In this document: in pieces, positions 7,309 to 8,127 of the stretch | Position numbering within the stretch: position 1 is the first letter of the stretch | How the letters are laid out: every line of letters starts with the position of its first letter | Source of the DNA: a virus | Lineage: Duplodnaviria > Heunggongvirae > Uroviricota > Caudoviricetes | DNA: 13,089 nt | Direction: 5' to 3' (one strand) | Virus record (IMG/VR): IMGVR_UViG_2531839006_000011 | Span: 1-13,089 of that record | Made by a program: the position numbers and the translations under genes | The notes under the pieces: generated by a model | Told to the model about the DNA's origin: nothing | Seen by the model: only the letters and a program-made list of their open reading frames with translations | Databases searched by the model: none

Positions 7309-7778
7309 GTAATAACTTGTCACAGGCCACCAACGGACTGTTGATGCAGCTGGTGATGGATCTCAAAAGTGGCTATCTGCGCCGCTGTGAAGCGCTGGGG
7401 CTTTCCCGGGAAGAAATGCAGATGCTGCAGGGGCTGAGTATTGAGGAAATTCACTATCTGTCAAATTCAGAGGTGTCAGTGCTGCGGCTGGATATTAACC
7501 ACAATAACCTTGTACGCATGCTGCAGCAGGCCAGGACTGAACAGAAACGCCTGCAGCGAATCGATCGCGCTCTTGCACTGGGGGGATCGATTGAACTCAT
7601 GGCGTTTTATTTTGGCCTTTCCAGTGTGGACGTTGCAGCACGGCGCCGTATTTCAGGAATTGATGTGCGCCCGGGCGGGGTATCACACTCAGCGATGATG
7701 AAAACTCTGAACTCTGGAGACTGTGGCAGAAAGCAGGGATTAACGATGTGGAGAGCGCTGACGGGCTGGACGTCATGA
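7305..7778 (+). CDS. Hypothetical protein (157 aa as one frame; possibly frameshifted or fused, see findings)
   Basis: ATGA overlap with the upstream gene (ATG 7305-7307, TGA 7306-7308). From 7664 the +2 frame is also open and more protein-like, so the 3' part is uncertain. Confidence 0.55.
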   Translation: MSNNLSQATNGLLMQLVMDLKSGYLRRCEALGLSREEMQMLQGLSIEEIHYLSNSEVSVLRLDINHNNLVRMLQQARTEQKRLQRIDRALALGGSIELMAFYFGLSSVDVAARRRISGIDVRPGGVSHSAMMKTLNSGDCGRKQGLTMWRALTGWTS

Positions 7779-7882
7779 TGCTCTGTGCAGAGCAGATGAA
7801 TATCCCGCTCACGGCCGTCTGGCATGCTGTCAGGGGGTGGCATACAGCCGGAAGCCCTGAACAGGTAAGGAATGCGTCATGA
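7775..7882 (+). CDS. Small ORF (35 aa from ATG; 44 aa if GTG 7748 is used), HTH-like, overlaps both neighbours by ATGA
   Basis: ATG 7775-7777 overlaps the upstream TGA 7776-7778, and its TGA 7880-7882 overlaps the downstream ATG 7879-7881. Sequence MMLCAEQMNIPLTAVWHAVRGWHTAGSPEQVRNAS; the frame is open from 7664. Confidence 0.3.
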   Translation: MMLCAEQMNIPLTAVWHAVRGWHTAGSPEQVRNAS

Positions 7883-8127
7883 AGATGAAAGAGCTGGTTC
7901 CCGGTCTGCTGAGCTGTCCCGGGGTACCGCCAGCCTGCCAGCGGAAGGCGGTGGACCTCGTTAACCGGTTTCGTCGCGGGGAGAGGAATTACCATGAACT
8001 GAAGGAAAAGGGATTCGGGTATATCAAGATTAATGTTGGTCCGGACTGGCGGTTACTGAGCAGGAACCGGGGACAAACCTGGGCGCTGTTGAGTCACGAG
8101 CGATACAACAATATGAGACTGAGGTAG
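7879..8127 (+). CDS. Hypothetical small protein (82 aa) with RelE/ParE-like C-terminal signature
   Basis: C-terminus WRLLSRNRGQTWALLSHERYNNM fits the RelE/ParE pattern of two beta strands ending in a His/Arg-x-Arg-x-Tyr region. The family call is by-eye inference only. Confidence 0.55.
   Translation: MKMKELVPGLLSCPGVPPACQRKAVDLVNRFRRGERNYHELKEKGFGYIKINVGPDWRLLSRNRGQTWALLSHERYNNMRLR

Follow-up and report, generated by a model that had tools for sequence, protein, structure and literature searches.

In the integrative conjugative element (ICE) ICEclc, the DUF2857 protein is BisC, which together with the ParB-like BisD forms the BisDC activator of transfer competence, and BisD and BisC together are sufficient for the activation of the Pint promoter (PMC7423338). 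The same element encodes the ParA-Shi-ParB system, by which activated cells are reported to be stopped from dividing (PMC6812849). The window, the whole stretch of 13,089 nucleotides analysed here, is identified by its sequence as the left (regulation/replication) end of a SPI-7/ICEclc-type element in E. coli, and it is 99.6% collinear with the annotated genome of E. coli AR_0089. The order of genes is parA, two hypothetical genes, dnaB-PI, a parB-family gene, DUF2786/DUF7168, DUF2857, ParE_like, an ead/Ea22 phage-like module and STY4528. The features to which the text refers are as follows.

1-1263, minus strand: integrase gene, left of a tRNA-like repeat
4935..6584, plus strand: ParB-family gene in the position of ICEclc bisD (AR_0089 RefSeq annotation by collinearity)
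6577..7308, plus strand: DUF2786/DUF7168 gene, in the interval from the ParB-family gene to DUF2857 (Pfam; AR_0089 annotation)
7305..7882, plus strand: DUF2857 (BisC-family) gene, with a 1-nt deletion in the window; the intact homolog has 192 aa
7305..7778, plus strand: shortened reading frame after the frameshift, 157 aa, the last ~33 residues out-of-frame (Pfam match to residues 10-124 only)
7664..7882, plus strand: displaced C-terminal third of DUF2857, the "HTH-like frame" (profile positions 114-173)
7673..7675, plus strand: GGG run, GGGG in relatives, site of the 1-nt deletion (alignment with AR_0089)
7866-7872, plus strand: Shine-Dalgarno-like TAAGGAA (direct sequence reading)
7879-7882, plus strand: ATGA overlap of the DUF2857 stop and the ParE_like start (direct sequence reading)
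7879..8127, plus strand: ParE_like (PF24732) gene, 82 aa, predicted RelE/ParE-superfamily fold, product identical to RefSeq WP_001696184.1
8134..11563, plus strand: phage-like small genes (ead/Ea22-like etc.), inserted between ParE_like and STY4528 (Pfam Ead_Ea22; PHROG; AR_0089 annotation)
11824..13089, plus strand: STY4528-family island replication protein gene (AR_0089 annotation; neighbourhoods of other ICEs)

As with bisC of ICEclc, the DUF2857 gene of the window is located downstream of a ParB-like gene within the left-end operon, in an element of the same broad ICE class. However, it differs from its ICEclc counterpart in being frameshifted, and unlike in ICEclc bisDC a DUF2786/DUF7168 gene is present between the ParB-like gene and DUF2857. 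Judged from the sequence, the ParB-like domain of the protein encoded at about 4893-6584 must be divergent, since RefSeq names it 'ParB family protein' despite the lack of any Pfam match at E <= 0.001. In other ICEs, the STY4528-family gene directly follows either ParE_like or DUF2857. A crude consensus search of positions 6300-8600 revealed neither a sigma-70-like promoter nor a terminator on the plus strand, a result consistent with co-transcription of ParE_like with the upstream genes.

The initial annotation had interpreted the region 7664-8127 as a possible toxin-antitoxin-like pair, with a RelE/ParE-like ORF preceded by an overlapping frame for a small DNA-binding partner. The elements of sequence from which this was built are indeed present, namely an 82-codon ORF starting with ATG at 7879-8127 and carrying the C-terminus that had been quoted for it, and a second frame, open from 7664 to the TGA at 7880-7882, which encodes DVMMLCAEQMNIPLTAVWHAVRGW and whose stop codon overlaps the ATG of ParE_like as ATGA. 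What does not hold is the identity of the second frame. On the 174-position Pfam model of DUF2857 (PF11198), the ORF beginning at 7305 covers positions 2-116 and the 7664-7882 frame positions 114-173, and joining both frames with the missing G restored gives a 192-aa protein that matches PF11198 over positions 2-173 of 174 with 222 bits. With this full-length match the restored product belongs to the DUF2857/BisC family, while the reading frame as it stands in the window is interrupted. The interruption can be traced to a single position, as the window has CCCGGGC where AR_0089 and relatives have CCCGGGGC (positions 7673-7675). This single-G deletion constitutes the sole indel with respect to AR_0089 across 13,089 aligned bases, and it is absent from each of the 31 complete E. 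coli genomes with this region. In all of them DUF2857 is intact and the tail continues the 7305 gene in frame, as is also the case in other genera. With 26 complete E. coli chromosomes the region shares 99.9% identity, each of them having one extra base, and the intact gene is described by RefSeq as encoding a 192-aa "DUF2857 domain-containing protein" with a 4-nt overlap with the next gene. Thus, the 7664-7882 frame is the 3' third of a bisC-like DUF2857 gene rather than a separate gene, and what looked like a toxin-antitoxin pair is an artefact created by the frameshift in this gene. The literal toxin-antitoxin model is hence refuted, since homologs place the upstream frame at the C-terminus of the 7305 gene.

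Given that the deletion is the sole indel against AR_0089 and is found in 0 of the 31 genomes, the break in DUF2857 can be put down either to a recent slip mutation or to an isolated sequencing error in the homopolymer. If it is real, the master activator of the ICE would be knocked out in this strain, and so probably would be its mobility. Programmed frameshifting was rejected, because all 31 relatives have plain in-frame sequence. The TGA that ends the shortened frame (7776-7778) and an in-frame ATG of the displaced frame (7775-7777) overlap to form another ATGA. A 35-aa peptide, MMLCAEQMNIPLTAVWHAVRGWHTAGSPEQVRNAS, could in principle arise from termination-reinitiation at 7775-7778, and this second ATGA is probably a coincidence of the frameshift. 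A match of DUF2857 to DrmC (E 7e-4) is weak and was judged to be spurious.

Modelling of the intact DUF2857 protein predicts an FlhC/FlhD-like helical fold, and in this respect the protein resembles both subunits of FlhDC. Its C-terminal part, derived from the 7664-7882 frame, contains helices 131-144, 152-165 and 169-181, of which the last two form a helix-turn-helix at the site of the DVMMLCAEQMNIPLTAVWHAVRGW peptide. The original impression of a helix-turn-helix in this segment was therefore reasonable, since the segment does fold in this manner in the model; according to the same model, this C-terminal helix-turn-helix is one module of a larger regulator and not a small antitoxin. The DUF2857 homolog of Pseudomonas pKLC102 shares only ~31% identity with that of the window.

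The 82-aa product is a plain member of a family already present in databases under the names PF24732, PHROG 1525 and 'ParE family toxin-like protein' of RefSeq, showing no difference from it. It matches PF24732 (ParE_like) in Pfam with 70 bits and E 1.7e-19 over model positions 2-67 of 67, where the gathering threshold is 24.4 bits, and phrog_1525 with E 4e-20, and it is 100% identical to RefSeq WP_001696184.1, "ParE family toxin-like protein". No match was obtained with NCBIfam or PADLOC. Members of PF24732 are mostly 72-87 aa long, a range that includes the 82-aa protein, and they have in common the motif WRLLS(R/K)..G..W.L(M/L)(S/T)HE(R/K)YN, which it also contains. By these sequence relationships, the 82-aa ORF is a real gene and not a chance ORF. 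The family itself is small on the present sequence count, because among 1.8 billion representative proteins, scanned in full with HMMER, relatives were retrieved in only 64 clusters. Residues conserved across it are W57, R58, L60, S61, W68, H73 and Y76, with R58, S61, H73, E74 and R/K75 as the most conserved polar positions.

How far this protein resembles RelE/ParE toxins, as had been proposed from its C-terminal strands, depends on the level at which the comparison is made. At the level of family and fold the likeness stands. The AlphaFold2 model (pLDDT 88) has a compact alpha/beta fold that begins with a beta-hairpin, continues with one helix and four strands and ends in a second helix, and its best Foldseek matches are toxins of the RelE/YafQ/HigB/YoeB/ParE type, with a TM of ~0.5 and a probability of up to 0.91. 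These best matches are weak, as none of the Foldseek hits reaches E <= 0.001. RelE/ParE toxins usually have an N-terminal helical hairpin, whereas ParE_like is predicted to have a single helix and an extra N-terminal beta-hairpin. At the level of sequence, the likeness to RelE, YoeB, YafQ, HigB and ParE is missing: besides PF24732, no classical toxin family of Pfam matches the 82-aa protein at E <= 1, the ParE_like profile retrieves no toxin at E <= 10 among all PDB chains, and the alignment of the family profile with E. coli RelE and YoeB by hhalign is non-significant. Matches of the profile to reverse gyrase among the PDB chains (E ~0.6) were set aside as chance. With a Pfam family assignment and a weak Foldseek agreement, and no sequence link to classical toxins, the 82-aa protein is, on the model, best described as belonging to the RelE/ParE fold class in a divergent form. 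The conserved R58, S61 and H73-E74-(R/K)75-Y76 are compatible with a RelE/YoeB-like active site, a residue correspondence that we infer only, since the hhalign comparison is non-significant.

The distribution of the two genes was followed across loci that included those retrieved with a search started from a 10-sequence ParE_like alignment. In all 30 ICE-type loci examined, ParE_like lies directly behind DUF2857, mostly with the ATGA (-4) overlap. In 22 of these the order is DUF2857, ParE_like and STY4528, again mostly with a -4 overlap, and this set comes from Salmonella, Brenneria, Serratia, Cedecea, Erwinia, Morganella, Photorhabdus, Pantoea and Xenorhabdus; it also includes a contig labelled Vagococcus, in which the match and the neighbouring genes equal the Salmonella locus. 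By tblastn, DUF2857 was found upstream of ParE_like in three Xenorhabdus loci, and the order DUF2857, ParE_like and STY4528 was also observed in Pectobacterium, Klebsiella, metagenomic contigs and plasmid pEB102. Outside ICEs, 13 phage, prophage or satellite loci contain ParE_like, and no DUF2857 was found in any of them. In P2-like prophages, ParE_like is located between an Rv2179c-like exonuclease or Dam methylase gene and methylases plus gpA; in P4-like satellites, it lies between the exonuclease and an 885-aa P4-alpha-like primase; and it is likewise found, lacking DUF2857, in lytic Murrayvirus and other phage early regions. The neighbours of such a lone ParE_like thus comprise the Rv2179c-like exonuclease, Dam/Dcm methylases, Lar_restr_allev, the P4-alpha-like primase and gpA. 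Conversely, DUF2857 followed by STY4528, with no ParE_like in between, is the arrangement in three ICEs, namely ICEHin1056, pKLC102 and a Ralstonia element, from which the window differs in having ParE_like behind DUF2857.

Two further observations concern the phage-type loci. ParE_like of P2-like prophages and P4-like satellites repeatedly adjoins the gene for the Rv2179c-like 3'-5' exonuclease, in most cases immediately downstream and in one case upstream of it. The position that ParE_like has in P2-like prophages is held by a DUF5405 protein in phages 186 and P2. An equivalence of ParE_like with one of the characterised early genes of these phages (dhr, fil, Orf83/DUF5405) was rejected, as the best E in an HMM search of both early regions was 0.67.

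With ParE_like standing alone in 13 phage-type loci and DUF2857 in three ICEs, each of the two genes can be taken, from sequence comparison, to work without the other. Across the genomes compared, toxin and presumed partner do not behave as a unit (30 loci with both, 13 with ParE_like alone and 3 with DUF2857 alone), and an adjacent, separately encoded small antitoxin gene is not present on either side of ParE_like in the window, since the upstream sequence is the tail of DUF2857 and the downstream 58-aa ORF is phrog_519. Nor was a consistent small partner of ParE_like found in any context examined, be it ICE, phage, prophage or satellite. In these respects ParE_like differs from classical type II toxins, having no dedicated antitoxin gene and variable neighbours, and the comparisons establish at the sequence level that DUF2857 and ParE_like are no dedicated toxin-antitoxin pair. 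The classic type II arrangement that had been described for this locus is accordingly not borne out, there being no separate small antitoxin gene and no universal pairing. The stabilisation (addiction) role suggested along with it is unsupported, because the pairing of ParE_like with DUF2857 is not universal and each of them occurs alone.

The explanation that we consider to be probable is that the window represents an ICE left end with the frameshifted tail of a bisC-like gene and with no dedicated pair, in which ParE_like would be a stand-alone effector of the RelE/ParE fold without a cognate antitoxin. According to this proposal, ParE_like would have been inserted between bisC and the STY4528 gene in an enterobacterial lineage. 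In ICEs, it would be co-transcribed within the bisDC operon and translationally coupled to bisC via the ATGA overlap, and owing to this co-transcription and coupling its expression would be expected upon activation of the element; in phages, it would be made from the early lytic operon. ParE_like would in either case be made only when the activation or early operon of the element is switched on, and would then act on a host target, slowing the host during replication and transfer of the element. A candidate target is the translating ribosome/mRNA as for RelE, as suggested by R58 and H73-E74-R75-Y76, or alternatively DNA gyrase as for ParE. The frameshift in the window, if it is a real mutation, would have inactivated the activator and uncoupled the translation of ParE_like. 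What speaks against a stand-alone protein is the invariable adjacency of DUF2857 and ParE_like, which share 4 nt in most of the ICE loci; this is also how an antitoxin and its toxin would look.

ICEclc ParA-Shi-ParB provides a parallel, being likewise ICE-encoded and located in the same left-end operon. However, its proteins are unrelated to ParE_like, and a role of ParE_like in growth arrest akin to that of ParA-Shi-ParB is suggested by analogy only. The tight coupling of ParE_like to bisC in enterobacterial ICEs, together with its solitary occurrence in phage early operons, hints at a way in which elements of this kind might arrest the host upon activation. Extended to the entire family, PF24732 might comprise antitoxin-less host-arrest effectors of the RelE/ParE fold wired to the activation switch of their elements, which in ICEs would be coupled to BisC, their production being confined to the minority of cells that are BisDC-ON and transfer-competent and that they would arrest, and which in P2-like phages and P4-like satellites would bring about host shutdown from the early operon; in this general form, the idea is tentative and rather unlikely to hold. 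RefSeq and Pfam already contain annotations of both genes and the type of element is well known, so that the finding as such is ordinary. Its coupling to bisC and its antitoxin-less distribution make ParE_like a testable and moderately interesting lead, and it would exemplify a RelE/ParE-fold protein that has no antitoxin.

A different reading of the same distribution, which we regard as possible although doubtful, would have ParE_like as a domesticated, non-toxic accessory or regulatory factor in the replication or activation of the element, for example one that binds BisC/BisDC, STY4528, or the primase or gpA initiators. It would account for the absence of an evident antitoxin in every context of ParE_like and for its constant placement in strings of replication/regulation genes, just upstream of STY4528, the P4-alpha-like primase or gpA. 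The gene has also stayed intact in a genome with a frameshifted DUF2857, and its fold is divergent with a single N-terminal helix. However, R58, S61, H73, E74 and R/K75 would, from their place in the motif, fall on active-site positions of RelE/YoeB/HigB, which speaks against a non-toxic factor. The missing antitoxin furthermore is no argument against toxicity, because an unneutralised toxin can be tolerated by phages that are lytic or induced and by ICE cells that are transfer-competent.

Much the same adjacency that weighs against a stand-alone effector could mean that DUF2857/BisC doubles as the antitoxin of ParE_like in enterobacterial ICEs, as an unusual type II pair in which the toxin would bind the C-terminal helix-turn-helix and which would stabilise the ICE or feed back on BisDC. 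DUF2857 is built of helix-turn-helix-like modules and immediately precedes ParE_like in 30/30 ICE-type loci, mostly with ATGA overlap, and the order of partner first and toxin second is that of most type II modules. Such a dual function is nevertheless very unlikely, as the 13 phage-type loci have ParE_like without DUF2857, ICEHin1056, pKLC102 and the Ralstonia ICE proceed from DUF2857 to STY4528 without ParE_like, and BisD and BisC of ICEclc alone are enough for promoter activation (PMC7423338). Within the window, the crude consensus search gave no plus-strand promoter-like site upstream of the pair, and an intact ParE_like resides beside a DUF2857 that has lost its C-terminal third, a combination which, provided that the frameshift is real, would be lethal or selected against if DUF2857 were neutralising. 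As for a classical type II addiction module in which a RelE/ParE toxin gene would be overlapped by a separate small helix-turn-helix antitoxin gene at 7664-7882, the open frame with its ATGA overlap with the toxin start and a peptide predicted to be helix-turn-helix within the intact protein are outweighed to the point of leaving it practically untenable by the lack of any possible start before the GTG at 7748, the continuation of DUF2857 through Pfam positions 114-173 and the in-frame fusion to the 7305 gene in 31/31 E. coli genomes and in other genera.

The stretch between the proposed stand-alone effector ParE_like and STY4528 in the window has no part in a toxin-antitoxin pair. This module (8134-11563) is lambdoid-phage-like, containing ead/Ea22-like, phrog_519, phrog_9799 and phrog_250 genes as well as a 198-aa ORF at 9244-9840 that matches phrog_9263 with E 5e-123, and several of its genes are pseudogenes in the AR_0089 annotation. 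It is missing from the ICE loci of other genera, where ParE_like and STY4528 adjoin. The acidic 58-aa ORF at 8134-8310 was considered as an antitoxin in reverse order and rejected, being phrog_519, part of the phage-like insert, and absent beside ParE_like in other genera. The module also contains a direct repeat of 145 bp (9837-9981 and 10668-10812, 93% identity) at the 5' ends of two of its ORFs.

Literature searches found no paper on PF24732 or on STY4527 in the library covered, and searches on BisDC with toxin and on ParE-like with ICE/SPI-7 gave nothing concerning the ParE_like gene.

At the left side of the window, positions 1461-1511 (minus strand) comprise TGGTGCCCGGACTCGGAATCGAACCAAGGACACGGGGATTTTCAATCCCC, the reverse complement of which is tRNA-like and is taken here to be the 3' ~50 nt of E. 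coli tRNA-Phe. ARAGORN and Rfam found no complete tRNA around 1461-1511, and the equivalent position of AR_0089 is annotated as 'tRNA-Ser' in RefSeq. This tRNA-like stretch is probably an att repeat at the boundary of the ICE. The mismatches between the window and AR_0089 amount to 50 in all, 49 of which fall within positions 1-1451, a part made up of the integrase gene and of the spacer that separates it from the tRNA-like repeat, and positions 1452-13089 differ from AR_0089 by one SNP and one indel in 11.6 kb. Because 49 of the 50 mismatches are confined to this part, the integrase seems, from the sequence comparison, to have a history unlike that of the ICE or to be part of a neighbouring tandem element.
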